64,000 nt of DNA from Actinomadura craniellae (GTDB taxonomy: Bacteria; Actinomycetota; Actinomycetes; Streptosporangiales; Streptosporangiaceae): assembly GCF_003289645.1 (NCBI RefSeq), contig NZ_QLYX01000008.1, forward strand, positions 208,147-272,146, read 5' to 3'. Numbering within the stretch: position 1 is the first letter of the stretch; the number at the start of each line of letters is the position of its first letter. The position numbers and the translations under genes are program-made. Below the pieces are notes generated by a model, which ran no database searches, had not been told where the DNA came from, and saw only the letters and a program-made list of their open reading frames with translations. Positions 5,797 through 59,102 of this stretch are shown here, in pieces.

Positions 5797-5810
5797 ACCC
5801 GGACGGGGTA

Positions 5811-6617: not shown

Positions 6618-6790
6618 GTGATCCTCCAGCATCCGAGGCGCCCCAGCGCACCGAAAACCGAAGGATCAGCCGGGCCAGGGCCTTGGCTTGCTGATCCTTC
6701 AGCATCCGAGGTGCTGTGACGCCCTGAAAGCTGAAGGATCAGCGGGCGAAGGCCCTGGCCGGTGATCCTTCGGGTTTCGGGTCGCCTGAT
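6618..6790. repeat. Cluster of three REP/MITE-like inverted-repeat units (CTGATCCTTCAGC...GCTGAAGGATCAG)
   Basis: The central unit has perfect 13-bp arms; the same element family recurs at 35001..35128 and, degenerate, at about 52990..53045. Confidence 0.7.
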
Positions 6791-6892
6791 GTCCCTGCTC
6801 TGAAGGGGCTTCATGGCGGGCTCGACTGTTGACTAGAAAGAACGTTCTAGCGATACTCCGGTCAGGAGTTCGTCTGACGGTGGGAGCAGGGC

Positions 6893-26136: not shown

Positions 26137-29100
26137 TCACGCGCGGTGGTCGGTGGGGCCCGACCGGTGCCGGCCGGCGGGGCTGAGGCCGGCGGCGGCG
26201 CGGTCGATGGCCTTCTCGACGGCGCCGACCCGGTCGGCGAGGAGGTCCACGGCGCCGACGGCGCGGCCCACCGGGTCGGCGGGGTCGCCGCCGAGTGCCC
26301 GGGCCCGCAGGTGGCCGGCCTTGACCTCGGCCCAGCGGCGGGCCTGGTCGGGGGTGAGCCGGTCGCGCAGCTCGGCCAGCTTGAGCAGGTTGGCCTCGGC
26401 CCCGGAGGCCAGCGCCTGCGCCTCGCCCCGGTAGTGGTCGTCGATCACCGCCGCCAGTTCGTCCGCGTCCATCACGGGGACGATCCGCTCCGCCAGCCGG
26501 TTCATGTTCCGGTAGGACCCCTGGAGCAGGAACGGCGGCTCGGTGCGGGACGCGTCCGGCTGCGCGGCCGAGGCGATGTAGGCCCGGTTGACCGCCAGCA
26601 CCACCTCGCGCGCCTCGACCAGCCGCCGCAGCACCGCCGTGATCTGCTCCAGCTCGACCGGGGAGTAGGGGTGCGCCAGCCGGTCGGGCCTGATCGGCTC
26701 GCCGTCCTGGACGGCGCCGACCAGCGCCCGCACGTCCTCGGGCGGGCGGGCCGACAGCGGGGCCAGTACCGGGTTGGCGGTGAGCGCGTTCTCCACGTAG
26801 CTCAGCGCGAACAGGTCGTCCCGGCCGGACAGCACGTCGCCGAGGTTCCACACGTCGGCCCGGTTGGCGAGCATGTCGGGCACCTGGAACGCGGTGCCCG
26901 ACTCGGTGTAGGGGTTGCCGGCCATGCACACCGCGAACCGTTTGCCGCGCAGGTCGTAGGTGTGCGCCTGGCCGTCCCGGACCCCCTCGATCCGGCGCTG
27001 GGCGTCGCACAGCGAGACGAACTTCTGCAGCAGCTCGGGCGAGGTGTGCTGGATGTCGTCGAGGTAGAGCAGCACGTTGTTGCCCATCTCCAGGGCGAAC
27101 GAGATCTTCTCCACCTCCCGGCGCGCGGCGGCGTCCGGCGCCCGGGCCGGGTCGAGGGAGGTGACCTCGTGGCCCAGCGCCGGGCCGTTCACCTTGACGA
27201 GCACCAGGCCGAGCCGCCCGGCCACGTACTCCAGCAGCGTGGTCTTGCCGTAGCCGGGCGGCGAGATCAGCAGCAGCAGCCCCATCCGGTCGGTCTGCCG
27301 GTCCTCGCCCGCCGCGCCGAGCTGCTTGGCCAGGTTGTCGCCGATCAGCGGCAGGTAGACCTCGTCCAGCAGCCGGTTGCGCACGAACCCGCCGAGCACC
27401 CCGGGCCGGTACTCGGCGATCCGCAGCCGCTCCCGCTCCCGCTCCACCAGCTCGGTGCGGCGCCGCCGGTACGCCCGGTACGCGGGGACGCGCTCGGTGC
27501 GGAACTCCCGGGTCCGCTCCAGCGTCTCGTCCAGCCGCAGCTCCAGCCGCCCGCCGCTGATCCGCGGGTGCGCGCCGAGCAGGCCCTCGACGGTGGCCGC
27601 CAGCGGGGCGGCGCAGTCGCGCCGGGGCAGTGCGGTGCCGCACAGCTCCAGCGCCACCGCCTCGGGCAGGTCGTCGGCCGGCGCGCCGGCCAGGTACCCG
27701 CCCAGCCACGCCTCGACGAGCTGCCGGCGGGAGTCCAGGTCGTCGCCCAGCGCGCGCAGGTCGCCCTGGTACTCCCGCAGCGCCTGCGGCCCCAGCGCCC
27801 GGTGGAAGCCGGCCAGCAGGGCCCGGGCCGCGGCGGAGGTGACGAACCCCGACCCGCCCGCCAGCTCCTCGAACAGGTACTCCCCGGCGAGCGGCGGGCC
27901 CCCCACGGCCGCGGCGAGCTCGGCGCGCAGCTCCTCGACCGCCGCGGCGGCGCCGAACCGGGCGCGGGCCCGGGCGAGCGAGGCGGCCCGCCGGGCCCAG
28001 GAGTCACGGGCGCGCTGGTCGGTGCCGTGCGCCCAGAAGAGCTGGGCGGCGGCCCGCGCGGCCGGCGGGTAACGCAGCAGGCCGGCCCCGCCGTACAGGC
28101 CGAGCAGGGCGTCCAGGATCAGGCTCGCGTCGTGGTCGTGGACGCCCTGCTCGTACCCCTCGTCGTACCGGTCGCGGGCCGCCGCCCGGACGGTGTCGAG
28201 CGTCGGCGCCGGGAGGGACGGCCCCTGTTCGTCCCTCCCGGCTTCGGCGAGGACCGCCGCCGCCAGGTGCTCGGACCGGTACACCCGCGGGGACTCCGAG
28301 ATCAGCGGCTGGTCCCAGAAGGGCCGCGTCCCCTCGAAGCCCGCGTCGCGCACCGGGGCCCGGTAGTCCGTCCCGGTGATCGCGAAGGTCATCCCGCCCG
28401 CGTGCGGGACGAGGGTGAGGTCGGTCGGCCGGGTGCTGACCGCGAACCGGTGCCGGCCCAGCCGGAGCGTGGCGCCGCCGTCCTCGACCAGGTCGGTGCG
28501 GTCGCGCAGCGCCCGCCCGGCCTCCTGCCGGGCGGCCTTGATCCGGCCGTCCAGCTCCCCGGCCCGCACGGGGTCGCCCAGCGCGCGCAACTCCTCGGCG
28601 ACCTCGCGCAGCTTCGCCACCATCGGGTCGGTGGCGAAGTAGGTGTTGACCTCGTCCGGTGAGCCCAGCCCGGCCAGCCGGCGGCGGACCCCGGCCAGGA
28701 TCCGCTCGGCCGAGCCGGCCAGCCGGTCGGCGCGGCGGGCCCGCTCGTCGAGCAGGGCCTGCCGGCGGGCGGAGAACGCCTCGTGGACGTCCTCGCGCCT
28801 GGCCGCCAGCTCGGCCAGGAAGTCGTCGAACTCGGCGAACCGCGACTCCAGGTCCTCCAGCCGGAGCATCAGCCGGCCGAGCCGCTCGTCGCACTGCTCG
28901 GGGGTGCCGGCCGCCGCCAGCGCGCCGGTGACCTCCTGGGCGAGCAGCGCGAACTCGGCGGCGAACCCGGCCCGGCCCTCGGCGTCCAGCAGCTCCCGGC
29001 GGCGGGCCGCCAGGACGGCGCGGGCCCGGTTGAGCTCGCCGGCGACCTCGCCGATCCGCTCCAGGATCCGGGTCCGGACGGTGGCGTCGCCGGTGTCGAG

Positions 29101-30999
29101 CGAGCCCGCCACCTCGGTGACCGTCTCCAGCCCGGCCGCCTGCTCGGCCAGCCGGTCGCCCAGCGGGGCGGCCTCGGCCACCGTGCCGATCGCCCCCGCC
29201 TCGCCGATCAGCCGGTCCAGCTCCTCGTGGTAGCCGGCGAAGGCGTCCGGCCCCTGGAGGAACGCGATCGCCCGCCGCCCGGCCCGGTCGAGCTCGGCGG
29301 CCAGCCGCCCGGCCTGCTCGTCGAGCCGGTCCAGGTCCATGTACCGCAGCTCGCGCAGCGTCTCCAGGTGCCCCTGCTCGCGGCGCAGCCCGGCCAGCCG
29401 GGTCACCCAGGCGTCGGCCGTCCCCGGCGCCTCGCCGCGGACCCGGCGGACCAGCGTGGTGATCTTCTCCGCGGCCTCGTCGAGCGCGGCGGCGGCCTCG
29501 GCGGTGAGCGCCTGGACGGTCTCGAACTCGTCCAGCACCCGCTCGGCGGTCGCCCTGACCTCGCCGAGCGGTCCGGCCAGGCCCTGCTCGCCGAGCCAGT
29601 GGTAGTGGTCGGACGCCCGCGCGCAGGCGGCGATCAGCCCCTCGAACACCCCCGTGGACGGGGCCGGTTCGGCCGCCGTCCGGGCCACCGCCAGGCAGTC
29701 GGAGATCCCGCGCACCAGGTCCGCGTTGCCGATCCGCTCCAGCGGCCCGGTGCCGGCGGGCCGGGCGGCGGCGTGCGTGTCGGAGACGTAGGGGGTCTGC
29801 CACACCTGCATCGGGTGCACCCGGGTGGGCTCGTCGGAATCGGCCCGGAAGACCACCATCGTGCCGTCGTCGAACAGCGAGTGGCCGTGGCAGGACATCG
29901 GGGCGCCGACCTGCTTGCGGATCACGTTGTAGGGCAGCAGCAGGGTCCGTCCCTCGGCCCGGGCGTGGAAGACGTAGAGCACGTCCTCCCCGTTGGGGGA
30001 GCGGATCGTCCGCTCGTACTCCAGGTCCGCCACGTCGGTGTCGAAGGTCCGGGCGCCGCCGCCGGCCAGGTAGTAGCCGCCGGGGAAGATGACGCCGTGG
30101 TCCTCCGGCAGCCGCCGGCAGGACTGCCCGATGCCGTCGAGCCGGGCGACGTCCCGGGTGCGGGTGTCGAACACCAGGTGCCGCCAGGCCGGCTCGTTGT
30201 AGGGGCGGATCCGCAGCAGGATCAGCGTGCCGACCCGCGCGTACCGGACGTCGGCGTCGCCCAGGCTCTGCAGCGGCTCGTTCACCGGCTCGCTGAAGAT
30301 CCCCGCACCGGTCTCGGTGTTGTCCTCCACCTTGACGGTGAGGGTGCCGCCCACGGTCTCGACGAACACCTCGCCGCCGATCGAGATGTGCGGGTGCCGG
30401 CCCGGGACGTGGTCGTCCCGGGTGGTCTCGGTCCACTCGAAGTCGTGCGGCGGCGGGAAGGCGTGCTCGCGCTCGCCCTTGTTGTCGAGGTACTCGACGT
30501 CCCCGTCGGGGCCGACCGCCCAGCGCAGCACCCGGATGTCTTCGATCCGGGGGCCAGTCCGGAAGACCGCCAGCAGTCGGCCCTCCAGCCGGCGCAGCTG
30601 CATCAGGCCGGCCTCCCGGTAGTACCGGTAGAGCTCCGCGAAGTCGCGTTCGAACCGCTCGCCGCCCAGCGGCCCGGTGGCGGGCAGCCGCTCGAAGACC
30701 GGCCCGTCGCCGGTCAGCGCGAACCGGTGCAGCGAGAACACGTCGTCGACGGCCGTCTCCGGCTTGAGCCCGATGAAGACGTTGTAGCCGAAGAGCATCA
30801 GCCCGCCGAGCGAGACGATGTCACGGGGAACGCAGTTGTGCTCGGTCCGGATCCGCTCGGTGCCGACGAGCCTGAGCTCGGTGCCGCCGAACACCTCCAG
30901 CCGCCGGTCGTTCAGCTCCCGGGCGCGCCGGGCGAGTTCCCCGGCGTGCCCGGCGAGCCGGTCCCGGAGCACCTCGTAGGTGCCCTGGTCGAGGGTCAT
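26137..30999 (-). CDS. Giant (1620 aa) flotillin-associated protein with a C-terminal MoxR-class AAA+ ATPase domain
   Basis: Walker A LLISPPGYGKTTL, Walker B VLLYLDDIQ, sensor-1 AGNPYTE, Arg-finger region LANRADVW. Long coiled-coil region in the middle. ATGA-coupled to the flotillin stop. Confidence 0.75.
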   Translation of the reverse strand: MTLDQGTYEVLRDRLAGHAGELARRARELNDRRLEVFGGTELRLVGTERIRTEHNCVPRDIVSLGGLMLFGYNVFIGLKPETAVDDVFSLHRFALTGDGPVFERLPATGPLGGERFERDFAELYRYYREAGLMQLRRLEGRLLAVFRTGPRIEDIRVLRWAVGPDGDVEYLDNKGEREHAFPPPHDFEWTETTRDDHVPGRHPHISIGGEVFVETVGGTLTVKVEDNTETGAGIFSEPVNEPLQSLGDADVRYARVGTLILLRIRPYNEPAWRHLVFDTRTRDVARLDGIGQSCRRLPEDHGVIFPGGYYLAGGGARTFDTDVADLEYERTIRSPNGEDVLYVFHARAEGRTLLLPYNVIRKQVGAPMSCHGHSLFDDGTMVVFRADSDEPTRVHPMQVWQTPYVSDTHAAARPAGTGPLERIGNADLVRGISDCLAVARTAAEPAPSTGVFEGLIAACARASDHYHWLGEQGLAGPLGEVRATAERVLDEFETVQALTAEAAAALDEAAEKITTLVRRVRGEAPGTADAWVTRLAGLRREQGHLETLRELRYMDLDRLDEQAGRLAAELDRAGRRAIAFLQGPDAFAGYHEELDRLIGEAGAIGTVAEAAPLGDRLAEQAAGLETVTEVAGSLDTGDATVRTRILERIGEVAGELNRARAVLAARRRELLDAEGRAGFAAEFALLAQEVTGALAAAGTPEQCDERLGRLMLRLEDLESRFAEFDDFLAELAARREDVHEAFSARRQALLDERARRADRLAGSAERILAGVRRRLAGLGSPDEVNTYFATDPMVAKLREVAEELRALGDPVRAGELDGRIKAARQEAGRALRDRTDLVEDGGATLRLGRHRFAVSTRPTDLTLVPHAGGMTFAITGTDYRAPVRDAGFEGTRPFWDQPLISESPRVYRSEHLAAAVLAEAGRDEQGPSLPAPTLDTVRAAARDRYDEGYEQGVHDHDASLILDALLGLYGGAGLLRYPPAARAAAQLFWAHGTDQRARDSWARRAASLARARARFGAAAAVEELRAELAAAVGGPPLAGEYLFEELAGGSGFVTSAAARALLAGFHRALGPQALREYQGDLRALGDDLDSRRQLVEAWLGGYLAGAPADDLPEAVALELCGTALPRRDCAAPLAATVEGLLGAHPRISGGRLELRLDETLERTREFRTERVPAYRAYRRRRTELVERERERLRIAEYRPGVLGGFVRNRLLDEVYLPLIGDNLAKQLGAAGEDRQTDRMGLLLLISPPGYGKTTLLEYVAGRLGLVLVKVNGPALGHEVTSLDPARAPDAAARREVEKISFALEMGNNVLLYLDDIQHTSPELLQKFVSLCDAQRRIEGVRDGQAHTYDLRGKRFAVCMAGNPYTESGTAFQVPDMLANRADVWNLGDVLSGRDDLFALSYVENALTANPVLAPLSARPPEDVRALVGAVQDGEPIRPDRLAHPYSPVELEQITAVLRRLVEAREVVLAVNRAYIASAAQPDASRTEPPFLLQGSYRNMNRLAERIVPVMDADELAAVIDDHYRGEAQALASGAEANLLKLAELRDRLTPDQARRWAEVKAGHLRARALGGDPADPVGRAVGAVDLLADRVGAVEKAIDRAAAGLSPAGRHRSGPTDHRA

Positions 31000-33005
31000 C
31001 GGGCCACCCGGTCGACCTCGGCGACGGGCATGCCGTCCACCCCGAGCCGGGTGGCCTCGGCCAGCAGGCCGCGCAGCCGGCCGAGGTCCGGGCCGCCCTG
31101 CCCGATCAGCTTGAGGAGCAGCGCCGACACCGTCAGGTTCTTCACGTCGCCGGTGTCCAGCGAGCGCACCAGCCGGGCCAGGTCGGTGTGGAAGCCGGAG
31201 TCGCCGTTCAGGTACGGCTCGACCACCGCCCGCGCGAGGTCGGAGTGCTCGACGAACCCGTCCACGGCCTTGCCCAGGGAGATCGCGCCGACCAGCCGGT
31301 CGAAGAACATGCTCTCGCCGCCGACGATGTTGATGTTGGCCTGCTCCAGCCCGGTGGCGAGCACCGTGGCCTGCGCCTCGGCGATCTGCCGCTGGGCGTC
31401 GAGACCGGCCAGCCGGATGTCCTTCTCGGTCTCCAGCCGCAGCCGGTACTCCTCGTGCCGGCGGCTGACGTCGTCCAGCGCGGCCATCGCCGCGGCCTTC
31501 TCCGACAGCCCCTCGGCCTCGGCCTTGAGCTTCTCGCGGGTCGCCTCGGCGGTGACCAGGGCCTGCTCCCGGGCCACGATCGCCTCGGCCCGGCCGACCT
31601 TCTCCACGGCCTCGGCGCCGCGCTCGCGCACCTGCACTTCGGCCAGCCCGGCGGCGGCCTCCTCCGCCTGGACGCCCTCGGCGAGGCGGATCTTGGCCTG
31701 GGCGTCCAGTTCCGCGGCCTGCCGGCGGGCGTCGGCCAGCGTCAGCTCCCGCCGCGCCTGGTGCACGGCGGCCTGCTCGGCGGCCTCGGCCGCCTTGATG
31801 TCCTTGACCAGGTTCTCCTGGGCCTCGGCCTCGGCGTGGATCACCAGCGCCTGGCGGGCGCGCTCGGCCTCCTCGACGGCGCGCAGCCGCTTGATGTGCT
31901 CCTCCTGCTCGGCGACCGTCCGCTCCACCGCGATCCGCTCCCGGATCACGTCGGCGATCTCCCGCCGCTCCACCTCGACCTCCTTGTTCGCGGAGATGCG
32001 CGACAGCTCGGTCTCCCGCTCGCGGGCGATGACCTCCAGCAGCCGGTCCTTCTCGATCCGCTCGCTCTCGATGGCGATGACGCGCTCGCGGTTCTTCTCG
32101 GCGACGGCGATCTCGCGGTTGCGGTTCTCCTGCTGGACGCCGAGCTGCTCGTCGGTGCGGATGTGCGCGGACTGGGCCCGCAGCCGCTCCTCGGCCATCA
32201 CCCGCTCGGTCTCGGCCTCCTCGCGGGCGCGCATTGTGGCGATCTCGCGCTGCTGCTTGAGTTCGGCGTCGGCCTTGCGGCGCTCCAGTTCCAGGATGGC
32301 CTCCCGGGCGTCCACGTCCTGGCGGGTGATCTCCTTCTCCTCGGTGCGCTTGAACTCGTTGGTCCGGACGTGCTCGATCGCGGTCAGCTCGGTGATCTTC
32401 CGGATGCCCTGGGCGTCGAGGATGTTGGACCGGTCGAGCGACATCAGCGACGTCTGCTCCAGGTAGTCGATGGCGGCGTCTTCGAGGCTGTAGCCGTTCA
32501 GGTCGGTGCCGATCACCTGGATGATCCGGTCGCGGAAGGTGTCGCGCTGGGTGTAGAGGTCGACGAAGTCGAGTTGCTTGCCGACGGTCTTCAGCGCCTC
32601 GGAGAACTTGGCGTTGAACAGCTCCTGCAGGGTGGCCCGGTCGCTGGCCCGGCCGGTGCCGATCGCCTGCGCCACCTTGATCACGTCCTCGGCGGTCTTG
32701 TTGACCCGGACGAAGAACGTGATGCGGATGTCGGCCCGGATGTTGTCGCGGCAGATCAGGCCCTCGCGGCCGGTCCGCTCGATGTCGATGGTCTTGACCG
32801 AGATGTCCATCTGCTCGGCCCGGTGCAGCACGGGGAGGACGATCGCCCCGGTGAAGGTGACGTCCACCTTCTTGACCTTGGAGATGATCAGTGCCTTGCC
32901 CTGCTCCACCTTGCGGAACAGCCGGGTGACGACGAACGCCAGCCCGAGGACGACGAGCAGGACGAGGGCGATCAGGATGCCGATGCCCGCGGTGATGGTT
33001 TCCAT
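30996..33005 (-). CDS. Flotillin-like SPFH/Band-7 protein (FloT/YqiK type)
   Basis: N-terminal TM segment, SPFH domain, long Glu/Arg/Ala-rich coiled coil, conserved C-terminal flotillin domain. Confidence 0.9.
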   Translation of the reverse strand: METITAGIGILIALVLLVVLGLAFVVTRLFRKVEQGKALIISKVKKVDVTFTGAIVLPVLHRAEQMDISVKTIDIERTGREGLICRDNIRADIRITFFVRVNKTAEDVIKVAQAIGTGRASDRATLQELFNAKFSEALKTVGKQLDFVDLYTQRDTFRDRIIQVIGTDLNGYSLEDAAIDYLEQTSLMSLDRSNILDAQGIRKITELTAIEHVRTNEFKRTEEKEITRQDVDAREAILELERRKADAELKQQREIATMRAREEAETERVMAEERLRAQSAHIRTDEQLGVQQENRNREIAVAEKNRERVIAIESERIEKDRLLEVIARERETELSRISANKEVEVERREIADVIRERIAVERTVAEQEEHIKRLRAVEEAERARQALVIHAEAEAQENLVKDIKAAEAAEQAAVHQARRELTLADARRQAAELDAQAKIRLAEGVQAEEAAAGLAEVQVRERGAEAVEKVGRAEAIVAREQALVTAEATREKLKAEAEGLSEKAAAMAALDDVSRRHEEYRLRLETEKDIRLAGLDAQRQIAEAQATVLATGLEQANINIVGGESMFFDRLVGAISLGKAVDGFVEHSDLARAVVEPYLNGDSGFHTDLARLVRSLDTGDVKNLTVSALLLKLIGQGGPDLGRLRGLLAEATRLGVDGMPVAEVDRVAR

Positions 33006-45631: not shown

Positions 45632-46843
45632 CTACTTCGGTGGGCGGGGGTGCGCCAGGACGGCCGGCCAGACCGTGAACAGGGCGGCGAGCATCGCGAA
45701 ACCACCCGTTACGACCGCGGCGTCCGCGGTGGCGGGGAACGGCGACAGCGCCACTCCGACCGCGATCGGCACGGCGAGCAGCGCCGTCCAGCCCCACAGG
45801 ATCGCCCGCCCGCGCGGGCGGGGGTAGAACAGGGACTCCTGGACCGGGACGGGGAGCGCCAGCAGGGCCGCCCCCGCGTACCCCACCCCGGGCAGGGACA
45901 GGGCGGCACCCGCGCCCAGCAGCACCGCACCCGACCCCAGGGCGGTGACGGAGATGCCGGCGGCCCGCCGTTCCGCACGTCCGATCAGGTCCCGGTGCCG
46001 CGGGTCGGCCCGCAGCCGCAGCGCCAGGTAGGTCTCGGTCACCGCCAACGCCCAGAACCCGAGGGTGAGCAGCAGGACGAGCAGGGTGACGAGCGGGATC
46101 ACCGCGCCGAGCGCCAGCGTCAGCAGGACCCGTCCGCGCGACGCCTCCCGCAGCCCGGCGAGCCGGTACAGGATCCGGTGGCAGGGGTTGCGCAGTTTCA
46201 GCGAGAGCAGCAGCAGCCACCGGCCGGGGGTCCAGCCGGGGTCGAGCCGCAGCGCCTCCCGGAACGCCTCCGCCGCCGTCCGGGGGTCGCCGCCGGCCAG
46301 GGCGGCCCGCCCGTACGCGATGTGCGGCAGCGGCGTCTCGGGGTCGAGCCGGACCGCCTCGGCCGCGGCGGCCAGCGCCCCCGGCGCCCCGGAGACCTCG
46401 GCGAGCGAGACGCTGAGCAGGCTGGTCAGCGCGCTGTCCTGCGGGTCGTGGCGCAGCCCCTCCTGGGCGGCCTGGGCGGCGGGCCACCACTCGTGCAGGC
46501 TCATGTGGATCCGGGAGACCAGCTCCCAGGCCGACGGCCGGGTCGGGTCGATCGCCAGCGCGGTGCGGGCGGCGTGCAGGGCGTCGTGCGGGCGGTCCCG
46601 GCGCCGCAGCACCAGGGCCGCCACGTAGTGCGGGTACCAGTGGTCGGGGGAGAGCCGGACCGCCTCGTTCGCCGCGGCCAGCGCGGCGTCGAGGGAGCCG
46701 ACCTCCGTCAGCGCGTACGCGAGCAGCGCGTGCGCCATCGGCTGCTGCGGGTCGCGCGCCAGGATCTCGCGCAGTTCCCGTTCGGCGGCTTCGGGGCGGC
46801 GCAGCCGCAGCAGCGTCCGGGCCCGTTCGAGGGTGTCGCTCAC
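45632..46843 (-). CDS. TPR-repeat protein with C-terminal multi-TM domain
   Basis: GTG start overlapping (GTGA) the stop of the AAA gene. TPR-like repeats, then 5-6 TM helices. Upstream part of the 588-aa ORF rejected. Confidence 0.6.
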   Translation of the reverse strand: MSDTLERARTLLRLRRPEAAERELREILARDPQQPMAHALLAYALTEVGSLDAALAAANEAVRLSPDHWYPHYVAALVLRRRDRPHDALHAARTALAIDPTRPSAWELVSRIHMSLHEWWPAAQAAQEGLRHDPQDSALTSLLSVSLAEVSGAPGALAAAAEAVRLDPETPLPHIAYGRAALAGGDPRTAAEAFREALRLDPGWTPGRWLLLLSLKLRNPCHRILYRLAGLREASRGRVLLTLALGAVIPLVTLLVLLLTLGFWALAVTETYLALRLRADPRHRDLIGRAERRAAGISVTALGSGAVLLGAGAALSLPGVGYAGAALLALPVPVQESLFYPRPRGRAILWGWTALLAVPIAVGVALSPFPATADAAVVTGGFAMLAALFTVWPAVLAHPRPPK

Positions 46844-48150
46844 CGCCGGTCCAGCCAGGGGCGCAGCTCGTCCCAGACCCCGCTCTCGTTGGAGTGCATC
46901 ACGTAGTTGCGGGCGGTGGCCAGCCATTCGCGCACCACGCTGGGCCGGACGGCCTTCGCCGCGGCCAGCAGGTCGGCGGTGTGCAGTGGCAGCGGGTGCC
47001 CGGCCCGCAGCGACTCGTGCAGCTTGGCTTCGACCGCGCGGTCCACGATGCCGGCCAGGTCGGCGCCGACGAACCAGTCGGTGGCCTTGGCGACCTGGAG
47101 GAAGTCGAGTTCGCCCAGCGGTTTGTCCCGTAGCTGGAGGGCGAGGATCGCGGCCCGGGCGTGCAGGTCGGGCGGCGGCACGAACACCATCTGGTCGAAC
47201 CGGCCGGGCCGCCGGAACGCCACGTCGATGTACCAGGGGGCGTTGGTGGCGGCCAGCACCAGCACCCCCTCGTTGGCCTCGTCGTCCACCCCGTCCAGCT
47301 CGGCCAGGAACTGGTTGACGATCTGCCGGTTGTGCGCCGCCCGCATGTCGGCGCGGCGGGCGGCCAGCGCGTCCACCTCGTCGAAGAACAGGACGCACGG
47401 CCGGCGGGCGCGGGCCTGCTCGAATATCGCCTTCAGGTTGCGCTCGCTGGACCCGACGTACATGTCGAGGATGTCGGCGAGCCCGACGTCGATGAACGCG
47501 GCGCCCAGTTCGCCGGCCGCGGCCCGGGCCAGGTGCGTCTTGCCGCAGCCCGGCGGGCCGTACAGCAGGACTCCGCCGCCGGCCCGCTTGCCGTAGGCGG
47601 CGAACAGTTCGGGCCGCTGCACGGGTAGCAGCAGCTTCATCCGCAGAGTCTCCTTGACCGCCTCCATTCCCGCCACGTCGGCGAAGGTGGTGCGTGGCCG
47701 CTCGGTCTCCGCGGCGATCTCGACGGGCGGGGCCTGCACCGGTAGCGGTTCGGCGACCCCCGGGACGAGCCGGGCGGCCAGTTCGGGGTCGGCCAGGGAC
47801 GGGTCCGCCGCGAGGGCCGTCCAGTACCGCTGGTTGGCGGCGCCCAGGTCGCCCTCGGCGACCAGTGCCCGGGCCGCGACCACCCCGGCGCGGGGCGGCA
47901 GGTCGGGCAGCGACTCCAGCGCGGCCAGCGCCGCGCCGTGCTTGCCCTGCCGGACGAACGCCTCGGCCAGGCCCGTGACGATGCCGGCGTCTCCGGGGGC
48001 GAGGAGCAGGGCCGCCTGGAACTCGGTCTCGGCCTCGGCGAGGAGGCCGGCCGTCAGCAGCCGTTCCGCCAGCAGCCGCCGCAACGGGGGGTTGTCGGGC
48101 GACAGGCGGGCCGCCTCGCGCAGCGCGTCCAGCGCGGCAGCGTCGGTCAC
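46840..48150 (-). CDS. TPR + classic AAA (CDC48/FtsH-type) ATPase
   Basis: GTG 48150 with AAGGAG RBS; Walker A GPPGCGKT, Walker B FFDEVD, second region of homology. The N-terminal 470 aa of the 906-aa ORF are a shadow of capA. Confidence 0.8.
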   Translation of the reverse strand: MTDAAALDALREAARLSPDNPPLRRLLAERLLTAGLLAEAETEFQAALLLAPGDAGIVTGLAEAFVRQGKHGAALAALESLPDLPPRAGVVAARALVAEGDLGAANQRYWTALAADPSLADPELAARLVPGVAEPLPVQAPPVEIAAETERPRTTFADVAGMEAVKETLRMKLLLPVQRPELFAAYGKRAGGGVLLYGPPGCGKTHLARAAAGELGAAFIDVGLADILDMYVGSSERNLKAIFEQARARRPCVLFFDEVDALAARRADMRAAHNRQIVNQFLAELDGVDDEANEGVLVLAATNAPWYIDVAFRRPGRFDQMVFVPPPDLHARAAILALQLRDKPLGELDFLQVAKATDWFVGADLAGIVDRAVEAKLHESLRAGHPLPLHTADLLAAAKAVRPSVVREWLATARNYVMHSNESGVWDELRPWLDRR

Positions 48151-48261
48151 GGGTTCCGGCTCCTTCGGCTCGGGGGGTGAGGCGTCCAGTCTCCGGGATG
48201 ACGGGCCCGGCCCGGAACCGGGTGCGCCCGCCGGTATGGCGGGCAGGGCCGTGACGAGGGG

Positions 48262-49239
48262 GTGATTTCGATGGCGACGATCGCGCTGGCGGGCGACACG
48301 ATGCTGGGACGTGGGGTGGCGGCCCGGCTGGTCGCGGATCCCGCGGCCGAACTGTTCTCCGCCGGGGTCCGCGACCTCCTGGCGGCGGCCGACCTGACGG
48401 TGCTCAACCTCGAATGCTGCATTTCGGGCCGGGGCGAGCCGTGGCCGGAGCGGCGGTTCCACTTCCGGGCGCCGCCGCGGGCGGCGGAGGCGCTGGCCGC
48501 GCTGGGGGTCGGCTGCGTCACGCTGGCCAACAACCATGCCCTGGACTTCGGCTTCGACGCGCTCGCCGACACCCTCGACGGGTTGCGGCGGGCGGGGGTC
48601 CGCACGGTCGGCGCCGGCCCCGATCTGGCCGCGGCCCGCGCCCCCGCGATCCTGGCGGCCGGGGGGACCCGGGTGGCGGTGCTGGGGCTGACCGACCACC
48701 CTGCGGACTACGCCGCCGCGCCGGACCGGCCGGGGGTCGCCCACGCGGACCTGTTCTCCGGTGTCCCGGGCTGGGCGGCCGAGGAGATCCGGCGGCTGCG
48801 CGGCGACGCCGAGGTCGTGCTCGTCACCCCGCACTGGGGGCCGAACATGACCGCCGACCCGCTGCCGTACGTGCGCGCCGCCGCGGCGGACCTGGTCGGC
48901 GCGGGGGCGACGCTGGTCGCGGGTCACTCCGCGCACGTATTCCACGGTGTGACCGGCCGGGTCCTCTACGACCTGGGCGACTTCATCGACGACTACGCGG
49001 TGGACCCGCGGCTGCGCAACGATCTCGGCCTGCTGTTCCTGGTCACGCTGGACGGGGCCGGCCCGCCCGAGGTGCGGGCGGCGCCGCTGGCCCTGGACTA
49101 CGGCCGGACGCGGCTGGCGGAGGGGGCCGAGCGGGAGTGGGTCCGGACCCGGTTCGCCACGGCGTGCGCGGCGCTGGGGGCGGCGCGGGTGGTGGAGGAG
49201 GACGGCCTGCTGGCGGTCCGACCCACCGAGCAGACATAA
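48262..49239 (+). CDS. CapA/PGA_cap family metallophosphatase-like protein
   Basis: LAGDTMLGRG, NLECC, LANNHALDFG, TPHWGPN motifs. Confidence 0.8.
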   Translation: MISMATIALAGDTMLGRGVAARLVADPAAELFSAGVRDLLAAADLTVLNLECCISGRGEPWPERRFHFRAPPRAAEALAALGVGCVTLANNHALDFGFDALADTLDGLRRAGVRTVGAGPDLAAARAPAILAAGGTRVAVLGLTDHPADYAAAPDRPGVAHADLFSGVPGWAAEEIRRLRGDAEVVLVTPHWGPNMTADPLPYVRAAAADLVGAGATLVAGHSAHVFHGVTGRVLYDLGDFIDDYAVDPRLRNDLGLLFLVTLDGAGPPEVRAAPLALDYGRTRLAEGAEREWVRTRFATACAALGAARVVEEDGLLAVRPTEQT

Positions 49240-49306
49240 AGGACATTTCCCTGCATTAGTCCCCGACCAGCGGGGACGTTCTGGAAAGAGCATCAAGGGG
49301 GCTGTC

Positions 49307-49564
49307 ATGAAGGCCAAAGACTGGACCATCCAGATCCACATCAGCGAAGAGGACCCGACCACCGTGGCCCGGGCCGTGCTGTCCACCGACGGGACGATGC
49401 GGGCCACCGGCGTCGGCCGGGCCCGCCGCAACCCGGCCGACCGCGAGGTCCCGGAGATCGGCGACGAACTCGCGGTCGCCCGCGCGCTGGCCGACCTGGC
49501 CGGCCGCCTGCAGAGCGTCGCGGGGCAGGACATCGCCCAGTTCACCGGTTCCGCCAGCACCTGA
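49307..49564 (+). CDS. DUF1876 domain protein
   Basis: About 85 aa with conserved ARRNPAD...IGDELAVARAL pattern; AAGGGGG RBS. Confidence 0.6.
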   Translation: MKAKDWTIQIHISEEDPTTVARAVLSTDGTMRATGVGRARRNPADREVPEIGDELAVARALADLAGRLQSVAGQDIAQFTGSAST

Positions 49565-53641: not shown

Positions 53642-54199
53642 ATGGATCGGGGAGAGGCTTCGGTCTTCCATTTCGTCGCCGGTGCCGGCTGCGTCTTCGT
53701 GCTCGCGCTCGCCTTCAAGGGCGTGGCCGTGTCCACCGCTTCGGCGTTCCTGGCCGGCACGGTCGCGCTGTGGTCGCTGCACACGCGGATCGCCACCGGC
53801 ATGGCGCTCGGCCTGGTCGCGTGGCTGCTGTGCACCGGGTTCGTCGTCAACGGGTCCGGTGAGCTGGCGGTCACCGGCGTGGCCGACGGTGGCCGGCTGG
53901 GGTTGTTCGTCGCCGCCGGCCTGGCCGGGGCGCTCGCCGGCAGGCTGCTGACCGGGAACGCACCGGACGACGCCCCGCCGCCCCGCCAGGCCACGGGGGC
54001 GACCGTCGTCCCTCTGCCGCGGGCCGAGCCCGAAGGCGGGCTCCTCCCGCCGTGCCGGCATCGCGCGGGGGACTGCCGGTACGGCGCGTACTCGGGCGGC
54101 CGGACGCTCAGCGTGGTCCGGGCGCCGGCCGGGGACGAACGGTCGGACGGCCCGGAACCATCAGACGACTGGGCCGGACGTCATTTGAAGAGGTCCTGA
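53642..54199 (+). CDS. Integral membrane protein (4 TM) with Pro/Asp-rich C-terminal tail
   Basis: ATG 53642 with GAGGAGG RBS. Confidence 0.55.
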   Translation: MDRGEASVFHFVAGAGCVFVLALAFKGVAVSTASAFLAGTVALWSLHTRIATGMALGLVAWLLCTGFVVNGSGELAVTGVADGGRLGLFVAAGLAGALAGRLLTGNAPDDAPPPRQATGATVVPLPRAEPEGGLLPPCRHRAGDCRYGAYSGGRTLSVVRAPAGDERSDGPEPSDDWAGRHLKRS

Positions 54200-54690
54200 C
54201 CGTCGCGCCCCGAGGGGTCCATTGTCAGGATGTCTTCGTACAGGCCCCGGACCGGCCGGCCGGTGAGATCGCCCCGCGGCGTGGTCTCCATCAGTACCCA
54301 GCCCGGGGTGTCCTCGGATGCCTCGTGGTCGCGCCCCTCGCCCGTCAGCCGGTAGAGCATCGCGAACACCGCCTCGTAGGCCGTGCACCGCGCGAGCCGG
54401 ATGACGTCGTCGCGATCGGCCCCCGCGGCCAGCAGCCGGGCGGCCGCCGGAAGGGACTCCAGCGCGCCGGGAGCGGCCCAGCCGTCGATCATCTCCGGCC
54501 AGATGCGCCGCAACGCCAGGAACCCGGCCAGCTGGGGGATGCTCTCGGAGATCTCGGAGAGGGCCCGGCTCTCGGGCTCGTCGGCGCCCAGTTCGGCGAA
54601 ACGATCCCGAAGGGCGATCGCCGCGGCGCGCTCCTGCTCGTCCATGGCAGTCAGCGCGCGGTCCCATCCGGACTCGGAAGACATCGACAT
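54181..54690 (-). CDS. Hypothetical acidic protein
   Basis: High GC3; no recognised domain. Confidence 0.4.
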   Translation of the reverse strand: MSMSSESGWDRALTAMDEQERAAAIALRDRFAELGADEPESRALSEISESIPQLAGFLALRRIWPEMIDGWAAPGALESLPAAARLLAAGADRDDVIRLARCTAYEAVFAMLYRLTGEGRDHEASEDTPGWVLMETTPRGDLTGRPVRGLYEDILTMDPSGRDGQDLFK

Positions 54691-54973
54691 CCCAGCACAA
54701 TGCCACGTCTGCGGCCTGGCTTGCTCGGCTCCAAACCACTGCCAACTTCCGCCGCGCCAGGGTCTCCCCAATGAGAGAGACCTAACCCGCCCCGCCTTCG
54801 GCTGACCATATGCGGGCGATATGGGGTGTTTGTGTCATGTCCGGAGGGCTTCAAGCGAGATGCTGCGTGCCCTGCTCTGTGGCCGTATCAAGCGGGTTCG
54901 CCGTTCTCCTGACATGACATCGCTGAGTCACTACGATCCCGACGATCTGTATTGGGTCTTGTAAGGGGGATCG

Positions 54974-55912
54974 GTGCTTCCGCACCAGAGGCAGTACGCG
55001 CAGGGGATGTTCCGCGCGCTCGTGGACGAGAGCAGCGGTAACGAGTTCGAGAAGCTGGTGCACCGACTGATGGAGCTGTGCCACCCCGGATACGTGCCGA
55101 TACGCACTCATGGTGATATCGGTGACCTTGGCGGGGATGGGCTCTGCACCTGCCACGGACATCTCTATGCCTGCTATGCACCAGAGACGTTCCAAGTCTC
55201 GAAGGTTCGGGACAAGTTCTTTGGCGATTTAGAGAGCGCCCTGATACAGCGCCCTGAGCAGTTCGATGCCTTCGTGTTCGTGCACAACGACCAGCGAGGT
55301 ATCCACCCGGTGGTCGCAGGGTTGATCTCTGAGGCTCAGCGGAGGCTGCCGAAGACCCAGCTGCGGCAGATGGGGCCACGCAAGCTCTGGAACGAAGCGT
55401 TGATCCTGGACCTACCGAGGATGGAGCAACTCCTCGGCCAGCCGATTCCGGTGAGCGAAGTCCGTTACGCCGTGGGTATGGCGGACATCGAACCACTGCT
55501 GAAACACCTGGCCGACAACCGTCCACGGCATGTACGACCCGCGGATATCCCATTGCCGAGCACCATGAAAGCGGACTACAACCGGCTCAGTCCTCGCTCC
55601 CAACAGGTGTTCAGAGAGGCTCGCCCCTACGTCTACCAAGTGGAGGAGTACTACCGTGGGTTGATCAACCATACTGAGCAGGACGAGGTGGCGGCCGGGT
55701 TCACGGCGTACTACTGCCAGATGCGGGAGGAGTACGGCGACCAGCCAGATGAGATCCTCTGGCAGTTGGAAGGGTACGTCTTGGGTCAGGCGCATGCCCG
55801 CTGGGAACGGGCCGACGCGGCCAGGGTCGTGGTCACGTTCTTCTTCGATCAATGCGACATCTTCGAGGTTCCGCCACCCGGGTGGCGCCGACCGCAGTCG
55901 GGAACATCATGA
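54974..55912 (+). CDS. Predicted effector component of an ABC-3C-like three-gene system (fold unassigned)
   Basis: GTG start with AAGGGGGA RBS; the stop overlaps the next start (ATGA). Lower GC than the flanks. Cys/His cluster CTCHGH and Asp-rich segment GDIGDLGGDG. Confidence 0.6.
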   Translation: MLPHQRQYAQGMFRALVDESSGNEFEKLVHRLMELCHPGYVPIRTHGDIGDLGGDGLCTCHGHLYACYAPETFQVSKVRDKFFGDLESALIQRPEQFDAFVFVHNDQRGIHPVVAGLISEAQRRLPKTQLRQMGPRKLWNEALILDLPRMEQLLGQPIPVSEVRYAVGMADIEPLLKHLADNRPRHVRPADIPLPSTMKADYNRLSPRSQQVFREARPYVYQVEEYYRGLINHTEQDEVAAGFTAYYCQMREEYGDQPDEILWQLEGYVLGQAHARWERADAARVVVTFFFDQCDIFEVPPPGWRRPQSGTS

Positions 55913-56178
55913 TCACACCGACGAAGGGAATTACTCCGGATCGTGCGCTTCTAGCCGTTGGCGCCCAGATCATCCTTCAGCTCGATCGGCCGCTGACAGT
56001 CAGCCAAACTTGGGCTCGTCTGCGCACCTGGCGGCAGGTGAACGGGCACCCGGCACCGTTATCCTTTGGCTGGTTCGTGCTCGCGCTCGATGTGCTCTAC
56101 GCACTCGGGGCCCTGGAGTTGAACGACGATCTGCTGACGGTGGTGAGGACGGGCCATGCTGCGTCGGCTCTCGGCTGA
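55909..56178 (+). CDS. Small (89 aa) alpha-helical middle component (MC-like) of the ABC-3C-like system
   Basis: Translationally coupled on both sides: ATGA with the effector, and a 23-nt overlap with the ATPase. Confidence 0.55.
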   Translation: MITPTKGITPDRALLAVGAQIILQLDRPLTVSQTWARLRTWRQVNGHPAPLSFGWFVLALDVLYALGALELNDDLLTVVRTGHAASALG

Positions 56179-57901
56179 CGACCAACGCTTCAAAACGGTC
56201 GAATTCCGCGAGGGGCTCAACCTTCTGGTTGCGCGAAGTACCGCAGAGTCATCCTCGACCGACAGTCGTAATGGTTCCGGCAAATCGAGTCTTGTTGAGC
56301 TCCTGCACTTCTTGCTCGGGGCGCGAGGCAGCCGCAATCACCTCGCCAGCCGGCCGAGCCTTCGGGACATCACGTTCACGCTGCGCCTCGATTGGCCGGG
56401 ACAGGCGAGAGCCATGGAAGTGAGCCGGAGCGGGAAAACAGCCGCGAACGTCCTGTTAGATCCCTGTCCCACATCCCTTGCAGGGCTTCTCCCGGAAGGC
56501 CGGTGCGCGGTCCCGGTCGGGGATTGGCAGGCGCTTACCGAGTCTGCGCTGTTCGGCCTGTCCGGTGAGCATCCGGGAGTCAGCGGGCGGGCGCTGCTGT
56601 CCTTCCTGATGCGCAAGGTCGGAGACCATGGATTCAACGAGGCCATCCGGAGTTTCGCGCGGCAGCCGGAGGCGCAGGCCACTCCGAACCTTGCTTACCT
56701 GCTGGGATTGGACTCCGATCTGGCGGCGCGATACCAGGATCTCGCGGCGCGCAAGGCCACCCGCGACCAGCTGAAGAAGGCGATCGACGATCCGGTATGG
56801 GGTCAGGTCGTCGGTAAGAGCGCGGACCTCCGCGGCCAGATAGCGATTGTCGAATCGAGAATCACCGCGTTGAACCGGCAGATCGCCGAGTTCCGGGTGG
56901 TGCCCCAGTACGAGGAGCTCAAATCTCGGGCCGATGAGCTGACGCGGCGGATCCAGGAGCTCAGCGCCGAGGACATCATCGATCGGCGGAACCTCGATCA
57001 CCTGGAGAAGGCGGTGGCCGAAGCCATCGACCCGGAAGTCCACTACCTCCAAGACGTCTACGAAGGACTCGGCATTTCGATCCCCGATCGAACGCTCCGC
57101 AGGTTCGAGGATGTACGCGAATTCCATGCCGCCGTGGTCGCCAACCGCCGTACTTACCTTGAGCAAGAGATCCGAGATACCCGAACGCGGCTGGAGAACC
57201 GTAAGGCCGAGCGGGCTCTCCTCGGGGAGGAGCAGAGCCGCATCCTCAAGCAACTTGGTGCAGGTGGTGCGCTCGCCGCTCTGACGACTCTGCAGAAGGC
57301 GCTGGGCCAGGAGGAGGCCGCGCGGGGCGCGTTGCAACACCGCTTGGAGGCGGCTCAGGCTGTTGAGGCGGGCAAGCGGGAGATCGCGAGCGAGCGTCTC
57401 AGATTGAACCAGGCCATCGAGACCGATCTGCAGGAGCGTCGCCTCCAGACCGACGAGGCCCAGGTTCTGTTCAATGACTTCGCTCAGCGTCTCTACGGTA
57501 CGACCAGGCCGTCCTATCTCAAGATCGAGCCAGGACCGAGCAGCCTGAGGATCACCCCGAAGATCGATAGTGATGTCAGCCAGGGCATCAACCGAATGGC
57601 GATCTTCTGCTTCGACCTGACCATCGCCGTCATAGCCCGCCGCGCGAACCGGGGTCCGGACTTCCTGGTCCATGACAGCCATCTCTTCGACGGTGTCGAT
57701 GATCGTCAGTTGACCCGGGCTCTGGAGATCGCTGTTGAGACCATGGCAGCCGAGAACATGCAGTACATCGTCACGATCAACGAGGATGATCTCGCCAAGG
57801 CCCGGGCCCTGGGCTTTGGCGCCGACCCCTACATCATCGAGCCTCGACTGACAGATGCCTACGCTGAAGGAGGCCTCTTCGGTTTCCGCTTCGACAGGTA
57901 A
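56156..57901 (+). CDS. ABC/SMC-like ATPase with coiled-coil insert (DUF2326/ABC-3C-type)
   Basis: N-terminal FKTVEFREGLNLLV...NGSGKSSLVEL (Walker A), about 230-aa coiled coil, C-terminal SQGINRMAIFCF (signature-like) and FLVHDSHLFDGVDD (Walker B/D-loop). Confidence 0.75.
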   Translation: MLRRLSADDQRFKTVEFREGLNLLVARSTAESSSTDSRNGSGKSSLVELLHFLLGARGSRNHLASRPSLRDITFTLRLDWPGQARAMEVSRSGKTAANVLLDPCPTSLAGLLPEGRCAVPVGDWQALTESALFGLSGEHPGVSGRALLSFLMRKVGDHGFNEAIRSFARQPEAQATPNLAYLLGLDSDLAARYQDLAARKATRDQLKKAIDDPVWGQVVGKSADLRGQIAIVESRITALNRQIAEFRVVPQYEELKSRADELTRRIQELSAEDIIDRRNLDHLEKAVAEAIDPEVHYLQDVYEGLGISIPDRTLRRFEDVREFHAAVVANRRTYLEQEIRDTRTRLENRKAERALLGEEQSRILKQLGAGGALAALTTLQKALGQEEAARGALQHRLEAAQAVEAGKREIASERLRLNQAIETDLQERRLQTDEAQVLFNDFAQRLYGTTRPSYLKIEPGPSSLRITPKIDSDVSQGINRMAIFCFDLTIAVIARRANRGPDFLVHDSHLFDGVDDRQLTRALEIAVETMAAENMQYIVTINEDDLAKARALGFGADPYIIEPRLTDAYAEGGLFGFRFDR

Positions 57902-57935
57902 TCGGCACGTCCGAGTCGCGGGAAGAGGAGGGTGC

Positions 57936-58469
57936 ATGAGCACGTACTGGTTCGAGCTCGTGGTCGGTCCGGTGGGCGACCTGGAGGAGGTCGCCGAGCG
58001 GCTGTACGCGATCTGCGGTGACGGCCAGCCGTCCGGCGATGGGCGGGGTGGCGCCGTCCTGTTCTCCCGGGAGTCGCGCAACGCCGTCGAGGCGATCCTG
58101 TCGGCGATCGACGACAGCGAGCGCGCGGGCCTCACGGTGACGGGCGTGGCCGAGGACCTGGTCACGGTCGATGACATCGCCGAGAAGACCGGTCGGTCAG
58201 GTCAGGCGGTCGGGCACTGGATCACCGGCGAGCGCGGCCCCGGCGGCTTCCCTGCACCGGTGATCCACCGCAGCAGCCGGATCAGGTTGTACTCCTGGGC
58301 CCAGGTCTCGCGCTGGCTGGCCGGCGCCGGGCTCGGCCGCGTCGACCAGGTCGCCGCCGAGGCCGCCACCGCCGCCGCCGAGGTGGACGTCCTGCTGCGC
58401 GCCCGCCAAGTCCTGCGCAACGCGCCCTCGGCCCGCCGCACCGCCCTGGCCAGACTGATCGACGCCTGA
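57936..58469 (+). CDS. HTH domain protein (possible regulator or accessory protein of the adjacent system)
   Basis: ATG 57936 with GGAAGAGGAGG RBS; HTH-like segment VDDIAEKTGRSGQAVGHWI. Confidence 0.5.
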   Translation: MSTYWFELVVGPVGDLEEVAERLYAICGDGQPSGDGRGGAVLFSRESRNAVEAILSAIDDSERAGLTVTGVAEDLVTVDDIAEKTGRSGQAVGHWITGERGPGGFPAPVIHRSSRIRLYSWAQVSRWLAGAGLGRVDQVAAEAATAAAEVDVLLRARQVLRNAPSARRTALARLIDA

Positions 58470-58508
58470 GCGGTGCGTTCGGGACCGGGGTGCCCCGCGC
58501 GGCTCCTG

Positions 58509-59102
58509 TCAGGCGGGGTACGGGGTCGCGTCGCGTGCGGGGCGCAGGGCGGCGGACCACCAGGCGAGCTGGTCCAGCAGGGCCTTGGCGTAGCCGGGGG
58601 CCTCGGCGTCCAGCGGCTGCCCGTCCTGCCACGTGGCGAAGTAGTTCGGGAACGCCAGGCTCTCGCGGATGGTCACCGCGTGCAGTTCGGTGAGGACGTT
58701 CTCCAGGTGGAGGACGGCATGGCGGCCGCCACCCGCGCCGCCGTAGCTGGCGAAGGCCACGGGCTTGGCCGTCCAGTGGGTGTAGTGCCAGTCGATGGCG
58801 GCCTTCAGGGAGGCGGGGTAGCTGTGGTTGTACTCGGGCGTGACCAGGATGAAGGCGTCCGCCCCCGCCAGGCTGGACGTCAGGGGCGCCATGGCTTCGG
58901 GGCGCGGGTAGGAGTCGCCGGCGAACTTCGGCGGGGTCGCGGGCAACGACAGCGGGAGTTCGACGTCGGCGAGGTCGACGACCTCGACGTCGAACCCGCC
59001 GTGTACGCGCGCCTGCTCGGCGACCCAGGAGGCGACGACGGGCCCGAACCGGCCCTCGCGGACGCTCCCGATGATGATGGCCAATGTGTGCTTCTCGCTC
59101 AT
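58509..59102 (-). CDS. NADPH-dependent FMN reductase family protein
   Basis: LAIIIGSVREGRFG...ILVTPEYNHSYP flavodoxin-like motifs. Confidence 0.8.
   Translation of the reverse strand: MSEKHTLAIIIGSVREGRFGPVVASWVAEQARVHGGFDVEVVDLADVELPLSLPATPPKFAGDSYPRPEAMAPLTSSLAGADAFILVTPEYNHSYPASLKAAIDWHYTHWTAKPVAFASYGGAGGGRHAVLHLENVLTELHAVTIRESLAFPNYFATWQDGQPLDAEAPGYAKALLDQLAWWSAALRPARDATPYPA

Follow-up and report, generated by a model that had tools for sequence, protein, structure and literature searches.

A candidate ABC-three-component, Lamassu-like conflict cassette with a DUF2326-family ATPase in Actinomadura craniellae

Does a short AT-richer islet in a GC-rich actinomycete contig encode a three-component conflict system, and if so of which kind? 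The locus lies in 64,000 nucleotides of Actinomadura craniellae (NCBI RefSeq assembly GCF_003289645.1, contig NZ_QLYX01000008.1, positions 208,147 to 272,146 of the forward strand), a stretch that we call the window and whose own numbering is used throughout. A first-pass annotation, made by a model from the letters and a list of open reading frames (ORFs), had read three genes of this islet as a cassette of the ABC-3C (ATP-binding cassette, three-component) architecture, which consists of an effector component (EC), a small middle component (MC) and a coiled-coil ATPase. Our analysis supports this reading, and we hold with a probability of about 0.7 that the locus harbours an ABC-3C (Lamassu-like) conflict cassette, self-contained and acquired by horizontal transfer, which combines a DUF2326/YydD-type ATPase with an MC6 middle component and a CTD10 effector, and that its mechanism is analogous to that of Lamassu.

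Gene order, families and spread of the cassette

The ORF list and the sequence hold three tightly coupled plus-strand genes (54974-55912, 55909-56178 and 56156-57901), and the GTG start, the ribosome-binding site (RBS), the ATGA coupling and the overlap between the MC and ATPase genes, which amounts to 23 nt, are all as first described. The RBS of the effector gene, AAGGGGGA, ends 3 nt upstream of the GTG. The features of the cassette are the following:

54974..55912, + strand: effector component, 312 aa; GTG start, RBS at 54963-54970
54974..55459, + strand: N-terminal domain of the effector, residues 1 to ~162; fold like that of restriction endonucleases, motif non-canonical
55484..55867, + strand: C-terminal coupling domain of the effector, residues 171-298; matched by the ABC-3C family CTD10 in Pfam
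55909..56178, + strand: middle component, 89 aa; PF20293 (MC6), its ATG in the ATGA overlap (55909-55912) with the effector stop
56156..57901, + strand: ABC/SMC-like ATPase (LmuB/YydD-like sensor), 581 aa; DUF2326, PDC-M68B over the full length
56270..56293, + strand: Walker A NGSGKSSL, ATPase residues 39-46; N39, G42, K43 and S45 invariant in 31 homologues
56669..57496, + strand: folded coiled-coil insert, about residues 172-447; long helices in the AlphaFold2 model
57578..57598, + strand: signature-like SQGINRM, residues 475-481; S475, I478 and M481 invariant, G477 nearly so
57662..57703, + strand: Walker B FLVHDS (503-508) and D-loop FDGVDD (511-516), conserved in the 31 homologues
54772..57921, no strand: low-GC islet, made up of the imported cassette and a 202-bp upstream spacer; GC minimum of the window

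Profile searches assigned all three proteins to ABC-3C families. CTD10 (PF20275) matched effector residues 171-298 with an E-value of 2.7e-19 (70.5 bits against a cut-off of 28.1), MC6 (PF20293) matched the 89-aa protein at 5.8e-22 (77.9 bits against 27.2) and DUF2326 (PF10088) matched ATPase residues 443-579 at 1.1e-37 (cut-off 28.7 bits). The ABC-3C class was reportedly described by Krishnan, Burroughs, Iyer and Aravind in 2020, as we gather from later papers and from the Pfam names, and is represented in Pfam by these same three families. With every component above its family threshold and the genes in the order effector-MC-ATPase, we found no architectural difference between the locus and the DUF2326/MC6/CTD10 class. 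In PADLOC the ATPase matched PDC-M68B at 2.9e-137 (456.7 bits) over residues 1-579 of 581 and the effector matched PDC-M68A at 2.3e-10, so that the cassette holds both the ATPase and the partner by which PDC-M68 is called. The match of the effector is confined to its CTD10 part (profile positions 118-251 of 253 and 62-196 of 200 in the two models), and the N-terminal parts of these models find no counterpart here. PADLOC lists its PDC entries, PDC-M68 among them, explicitly as untested candidates, nominated for members embedded in BREX, DISARM and type I restriction-modification loci. The searches of the ATPase against DUF2326, of the 89-aa protein against the MC families and of the region with PADLOC, all proposed in the first-pass annotation, thus bear out its call.

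The three genes travel together. We scanned one genome per species and confirmed relatives of the ATPase in at least 462 genomes; the locus counts given here refer to the best 80 of these, all from Actinomycetota. Homologues of the effector and the MC stand directly upstream of the ATPase, in the same order and spacing, in 78 of the 80, so that the MC keeps its place between its two partners and the missing linkage that would have spoken against a cassette was not found. The exceptions are L056, where other genes precede the ATPase, and L061, where a tyrosine integrase and an excisionase-like ORF (5110-6809) are inserted right upstream of it and the effector and most of the MC are lost; this second cassette is disrupted by a mobile element. 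A few of the 80 loci carry frameshifted ATPases. PF20275 was present in all effector homologues (n=77) and in 45 of 45 members of the effector family, all of which also match PDC-M68A.

The cassette is found on at least 12 Streptomyces plasmids, where RefSeq annotates two “ABC-three component system protein” genes around an “ABC-three component system middle component 6”. In the one plasmid that we examined in detail (NZ_CP107897.1; L084, 1053-6729) the 4-nt and 23-nt overlaps are identical to those of the window. Homologues in NCBI, UniRef and JGI go by the names “ABC-three component system protein”, “DUF2326 domain-containing protein” and “YydD (DUF2326 family)”, and all cassette proteins of the window are 100% identical to A. 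craniellae entries (the effector to DPM19_19235). Pfam, PADLOC and RefSeq already define and name the family to which the cassette belongs, and it is an ordinary member; the earlier suggestion of a possible new variant does not hold, since the same architecture is common in actinomycetes and RefSeq names it. For the genome biology of A. craniellae it would represent an ordinary accessory defence gene set. That the clade is so widespread in antibiotic-producing actinomycetes, reaching many linear plasmids besides the species genomes of our scan, gives it a wider interest, and the result also confirms that a reading of the raw sequence, made with no tools, can correctly call a three-component immune cassette.

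Base composition points to import. The 3.1-kb segment has a GC content of 0.621, whereas the window averages 0.726 (sd 0.030, z = -3.5), and the lowest value among all 3.13-kb segments of the window lies at 54801. GC at third codon positions (GC3) is 0.71-0.76 in the three cassette genes and 0.86-0.95 in eight neighbouring genes. The AT-richer islet of the first-pass annotation is therefore real, and composition is not uniform, as it would be for a resident segment; its proposed extent of 54800-58470 was right about the dip and wrong about the end. The left edge is the start of a divergent 196-aa gene at 54771, and the right edge lies at about 57921, just past the ATPase stop, where homology to helix-turn-helix (HTH) loci of other Actinomadura begins. 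In 74 of 76 homologous loci the GC of the cassette is below that of its flanks, by a mean of 6 points, and no flanking gene family is common to more than 16 of the 80 or kept beyond a subclade. This lower GC together with the lack of a widely shared neighbour indicates that the cassette is a self-contained mobile unit. Around the islet itself we saw no insertion scars: flanking direct or inverted repeats were not convincing, and neither a tRNA nor an integrase or transposase adjoins it. A clean empty site could not be demonstrated either: the HTH gene is the only conserved flank that we found, and its contexts differ in other Actinomadura.

The distance to the end of the linear plasmid or chromosome is 4-15 kb for many of the Streptomyces copies (L010, L011, L030, L031, L046, L084 and plasmid matches H1-H13), and some copies occur in each of the two terminal inverted repeats or at an end that chromosome and plasmid share. 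The gene directly upstream of these end-proximal copies codes for an 884-aa “Helicase associated domain protein”. It is curious to find a DNA-end-sensing type of system at the ends of replicons.

Such placing bears on an alternative in which the cassette is chiefly a selfish module for stabilisation or replicon competition, and not an anti-phage system, that kills cells losing or gaining a replicon or polices the DNA ends of linear replicons. Copies near replicon ends, some of them in both terminal repeats by the helicase-associated gene, would fit it, as would the known action of Lamassu/DdmABC on plasmids, its sensing of DNA ends and our search of 50,697 phage records, which found no copy of the cassette. 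The copy in the window is however internal to a 310-kb contig and has ordinary metabolic genes as neighbours, the telomere-proximal gene adjoins the cassette in only 16 of the 80 loci, and the anti-plasmid and anti-phage roles of Lamassu are not exclusive. We therefore regard a chiefly selfish role as unlikely, though it is the foremost of the rival explanations.

An ATPase closest in fold to YydD and LmuB

The motifs first noticed in the ATPase, namely NGSGKSSL, SQGINRM, FLVHDS and the D-loop, are all present and are invariant or nearly so in 31 homologues; around Walker B and the D-loop the invariant residues are F503, H506, D507, S508, D512, G513, V514 and D515. In the AlphaFold2 model (predicted local distance difference test, pLDDT, of 83.6) the head is split, and long antiparallel helices (187-211, 222-244, 252-289, 311-368, 371-427 and 429-447) lie between its two halves. 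These helices make up a folded coiled coil of roughly 265-275 aa, longer than the 230 aa or so first estimated, and the sequence has no CxxC zinc hook. Two substitutions set the active site apart. An invariant serine, Ser508 (57677-57679), stands where the catalytic glutamate follows the Walker B aspartate, and an invariant asparagine, Asn542 (57779-57781), appears to occupy the position expected for the H-loop histidine, a placement that we base on position. Judged from sequence, the pair suggests that ATP hydrolysis is slow or absent and that the protein could act as a slow ATP-binding switch and not as a fast motor.

Foldseek searches of the model against the PDB ranked first the integrative YydD-YydB structure of Bacillus subtilis (4e-25). 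YydD, a DUF2326 protein (PDB 9a6c), is the closest ATPase fold, with a TM-score of 0.58 over the full length and a sequence identity of 18%. In B. subtilis YydD is grouped with YydB and YydC (YydB-YydC-YydD), and the title of 9a6c gives the ATPase-effector contact between YydD and YydB as backed by crosslinking mass spectrometry. The B. subtilis effector YydB is, we presume, a phosphoesterase-type protein and not one with a nuclease fold. Ranks 2-6 and 8 were taken by Lamassu LmuB chains from several cryo-electron microscopy (cryo-EM) entries (2.8e-15 to 9.4e-10), and below LmuB came the heads of Rad50, SbcC and SMC (5e-10 to about 1e-6).

These lower matches raise the alternative that the ATPase is a housekeeping SMC-like repair protein of the RecN, RecF or SbcC type with incidental neighbours. 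The generic SMC_N and AAA_23 P-loop matches and the weak Rad50 and SMC similarities of the protein would be consistent with it. NCBIfam models however scored 12-17 bits against cut-offs of 350-1000 (SMC 15.3 against 729, Rad50 12.4 against 1000), those for RecN and RecF gave no match, and RecN appeared in the Foldseek list only at rank 50 (5.2e-6), far below YydD and LmuB. The strict linkage to the MC6 and CTD10 partners, the variable context, the copies on plasmids and the atypical GC also argue against a housekeeping role, which we consider the most improbable of the explanations weighed here. A similar comparison holds for Rad50-Mre11/SbcCD, which follows LmuB among the structural matches (5e-10 to 1e-7) and has been proposed in the literature as the ancestor of Lamassu: an ABC head with a coiled-coil insert is common to both, whereas in the cassette the coiled coil is much shorter, there is neither a zinc hook nor an Mre11/SbcD partner, and the genes are patchy in distribution, mobile and low in GC.

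The Pfam CTD10 model also matches residues 278-403 of the ATPase (56987-57364), at the apex of the coiled coil, with an E-value of 2.5e-18, and does so in all homologues. The match was lost in shuffled and reversed controls, indicating that it depends on residue order and is not compositional. Its place matters because in Lamassu the C-terminal domain of the effector docks at this apex. Direct comparison of the effector C-terminal domain with ATPase residues 278-403 by hhalign and hmmsearch, using narrow and broad alignments, revealed no similarity, and the predicted secondary structures of the two segments differ. Either the Pfam model mixes two sets of sequences, or the relationship may be too remote for the alignments used.

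The effector, its relatives and the likeness to Lamassu

Systems of this architecture are not known from comparative genomics alone, as the first-pass annotation had it. Later literature equates ABC-3C with type II Lamassu, which has been studied by phage assays and cryo-EM, and it is the DUF2326/MC6/CTD10 clade that is so far a candidate only. In Vibrio cholerae DdmA carries CTD7, DdmB is MC3 and DdmC is the ATPase. Cryo-EM and genetics of the V. cholerae and Salmonella enterica systems have described an LmuA1-LmuB2-LmuC1 complex in which the kinked apex of the LmuB coiled coil and LmuC hold the C-terminal domain of a monomeric LmuA. In vitro this complex binds to DNA ends, and in vivo it accumulates at the origin of phage replication. 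The Walker A lysine is indispensable. LmuA, once released, tetramerises and so builds the active site of its Cap4 nuclease. Short LmuB proteins average 600 aa, may be without a zinc hook and have a Walker B of the form hhhhD[Q/S/T/E] (Haudiquet et al.).

The cassette resembles short (type II) Lamassu/DdmABC of V. cholerae and S. enterica (LmuA-LmuC-LmuB) in its three-gene order, in an SMC/Rad50-like ATPase of 581 aa whose folded coiled coil has no zinc hook, whose Walker B fits the same form and whose fold matches LmuB at 2.8e-15 to 2.4e-10, and in an effector that joins an N-terminal domain of the PD-(D/E)xK type to a helical C-terminal domain. It differs in its parts: characterised Lamassu combines MC3 with either CTD7 or CTD12, and its Cap4 (DUF4297) nuclease has a catalytic lysine, whereas the cassette has MC6, CTD10 and another nuclease-fold family with Q/A-x-Y on strand 3.

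The AlphaFold2 model of the effector (mean pLDDT 84) consists of an alpha/beta domain (residues 1 to about 160) followed by an all-helical domain. The first of these shows the alpha-beta-beta-beta-alpha-beta core of the PD-(D/E)xK fold, and the fold check suggested earlier came out positive. No Pfam family, those of nucleases included, matched the domain in any of 45 homologues, and this applies also to DUF4297. A PADLOC model of LmuA (PDLC03852) matched residues 16-74 only, at 4.9e-7, and one LmuA model matches 43 of the 45 homologues.

A search with the N-terminal domain alone against 1.84 billion representative sequences gave 503 clusters. Across 114 domains the family signature is F-(Q/E)26, G50-D51, D55-G56, (Q/A)66-x-Y68-x-P70, K81, D85 and F-V-x-N105, and D51, D55, K81, D85 and N105 are conserved at 92-99% among these 114 divergent representatives. 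Strand 3 reads Q-x-Y in 67% of the wider family and its lysine position is a tyrosine throughout; K81, on the helix after strand 3, is the only conserved lysine of the domain. Apart from CTD10 effectors of about 300 aa, the same domain heads proteins of 436-661 aa with a SAVED domain, proteins of about 1000-1250 aa in which NACHT, NB-ARC or AAA_16 STAND modules are combined with TPRs (phmmer E-values of 1e-14 to 1e-9 for the SAVED and STAND relatives), and others in which only TPRs follow it. It is thus shared at the N-terminus with Cap4-type CBASS effectors and with nuclease-headed, Avs-like STAND NTPases, in which the cyclic-oligonucleotide or STAND sensor is fused in cis, whereas in the cassette the sensor is the separate pair of ATPase and MC. 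Because of its fold and of its place in architectures where nucleases are usual, the domain is most likely a nuclease, and its presence on SAVED and STAND scaffolds, both of which activate their effectors by oligomerisation, supports activation of that kind here.

Two further observations concern this family. The lysine within the GD..DG loop of its wider membership, which reads GD(RK)xDG, is missing from the actinomycete CTD10 subfamily, where the loop reads GDLGGDG. No Pfam model covers the family with its 503 representative clusters; proteins noted among its members are P0317, P0318, P0377, P0319, P0324 and P0332.

Several results weigh against the Lamassu-like reading of the cassette. The effector lacks the canonical (D/E)xK, strand 3 being A66-C67-Y68 and D55 preceding strand 2, and Foldseek found nothing significant for the effector in the PDB. 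Sequence and profile searches of the PDB gave no match for the ATPase, nor any for the effector or the MC, and the best PADLOC match of the ATPase to an LmuB model is weak (4.7e-10, 37 bits, in two partial stretches). MC6 is not known to be related to LmuC, which is MC3. Literature searches on the function of PDC-M68, DUF2326 and YydD returned nothing relevant, with no reported phage or plasmid phenotype for the DUF2326/MC6/CTD10 clade. In the window the cassette stands alone, no further defence genes lying within about 10 kb of it.

The points on the effector would also suit an alternative that keeps the ABC-3C architecture and denies the effector a DNA nuclease activity, its divergent fold acting on another substrate or only binding one. 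To the lacking Pfam nuclease family and PDB match it can add that the strand-3 catalytic lysine has become a near-invariant tyrosine and that the acidic or glutamine position is alanine in the CTD10 subfamily. The conservation of the five polar and charged residues listed above, however, points to catalysis, and the domain fills the slot of a nuclease in the SAVED and STAND fusions. In some PD-(D/E)xK families the lysine is known to have moved to an adjacent helix. An effector that is not a DNA nuclease thus seems to us improbable, slightly more so than the chiefly selfish role considered above.

Returning to the cassette as a Lamassu-like system with a nuclease effector, we infer a logic of sequestering, sensing, release and oligomerisation because its architecture and folds are homologous to those of short Lamassu, and the stoichiometry, trigger, nuclease activity and phenotype given here follow from that analogy. 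An ATPase dimer, joined by the 89-aa MC, would hold one effector inactive by gripping its C-terminal domain at the apex of the coiled coil, MC6 and CTD10 taking the places of MC3 and CTD7. The ATPase/MC module would recognise abnormal DNA, for example the free ends of phage or plasmid DNA or the intermediates of its replication, and an ATP-dependent change would then release the effector. Self-association through the C-terminal domain could render the nuclease-like domain active, and the ensuing degradation of DNA would abort the infection or eliminate the invading replicon. The cassette is in this way tied to the Lamassu systems, which are now understood mechanistically, and its main interest lies in the question of whether the same logic extends to MC6/CTD10 partners and to an effector with no canonical lysine. 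Further interest lies in the non-canonical motifs of ATPase and effector and in the near-telomere Streptomyces subclade.

These last features lead us to speculate, and only tentatively, that actinomycete DUF2326/MC6/CTD10 cassettes form a functionally distinct Lamassu-like branch with an ATP-binding-switch sensor, an uncatalogued effector family and a subclade at linear-replicon ends. If this were correct, the sensor, having neither the Walker B glutamate nor the H-loop histidine, may be a switch and not a hydrolase, the effector family would have a Q/A-x-Y ... K ... D active site common to SAVED and STAND immune proteins, and the Streptomyces subclade adjoining the terminal helicase gene would hint at DNA-end surveillance or linear-replicon competition.

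Surroundings of the cassette and other features of the window

Two features lie directly around the cassette:

54909..54937, + strand: promoter-like site upstream of the effector gene, CTGACA-17-TACGAT, 9 of 12 consensus matches, weak evidence
57936..58469, + strand: HTH-like gene, 177 aa, not part of the cassette; ATG at 57936, RBS GAGGAGGG

The promoter-like site is the sole one of its kind in 54000-59000, where shuffled sequences give 0.4, and is a consensus match only.

The HTH gene is indeed the next gene after the ATPase, as first noted; it is an unrelated neighbour and not part of the system. Could it encode a regulator and fourth component, making this a four-gene variant? It lies on the strand of the ATPase gene, the 35 bp from the ATPase stop to its start hold no terminator-like site, and its product matches the PADLOC candidate PDC-M06B (7.8e-17) and, weakly, mad1. 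It is however next to the cassette in none of the 80 homologous loci, its GC3 of 0.93 is at host level against 0.71-0.76 for the cassette, and homology to other Actinomadura HTH loci begins only about 15 bp before its ATG. Moreover, homologues with 75-84% identity occur across Thermomonosporaceae-type genomes (other Actinomadura, Spirillospora, Actinoallomurus), where they stand in unrelated contexts and no cassette accompanies them. We rejected it as a component, and a four-gene variant appears very improbable. In two Actinomadura genomes the gene is preceded by a leader of about 263 bp (84% identity, GC 0.65; L081 7205-8001, L082 7286-8001), and a 16-aa upstream ORF that overlaps the start codon may lie within it; in the window this leader is missing and the ATPase stop takes its place upstream of the ATG.

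The 8 flanking proteins and 9 more distant ones from the window had no specific PADLOC matches, the only ones being generic AAA matches for 46840-49560. That minus-strand gene encodes a 906-aa TPR and AAA protein (matches of the generic IetA/TRIP13 type) and is not linked to the cassette, nor is a 1034-aa SARP/BTAD-NB-ARC-TPR regulator encoded at 20847-23951 on the minus strand. Inside or next to the regulator gene ARAGORN placed a “tRNA-Gly (acc)” of 104 nt (23627-23730, minus strand), which is far longer than a normal tRNA and probably a false call. Also on the minus strand, 26137-30999 encodes a 1620-aa protein with DUF3686 (“ATPase involved in DNA repair”, 1e-211) and DUF7902, and 4 nt of its gene are shared with the gene of a 669-aa protein (30996-33005), which has no Pfam or PADLOC match; the two are an uncharacterised large ATPase pair.

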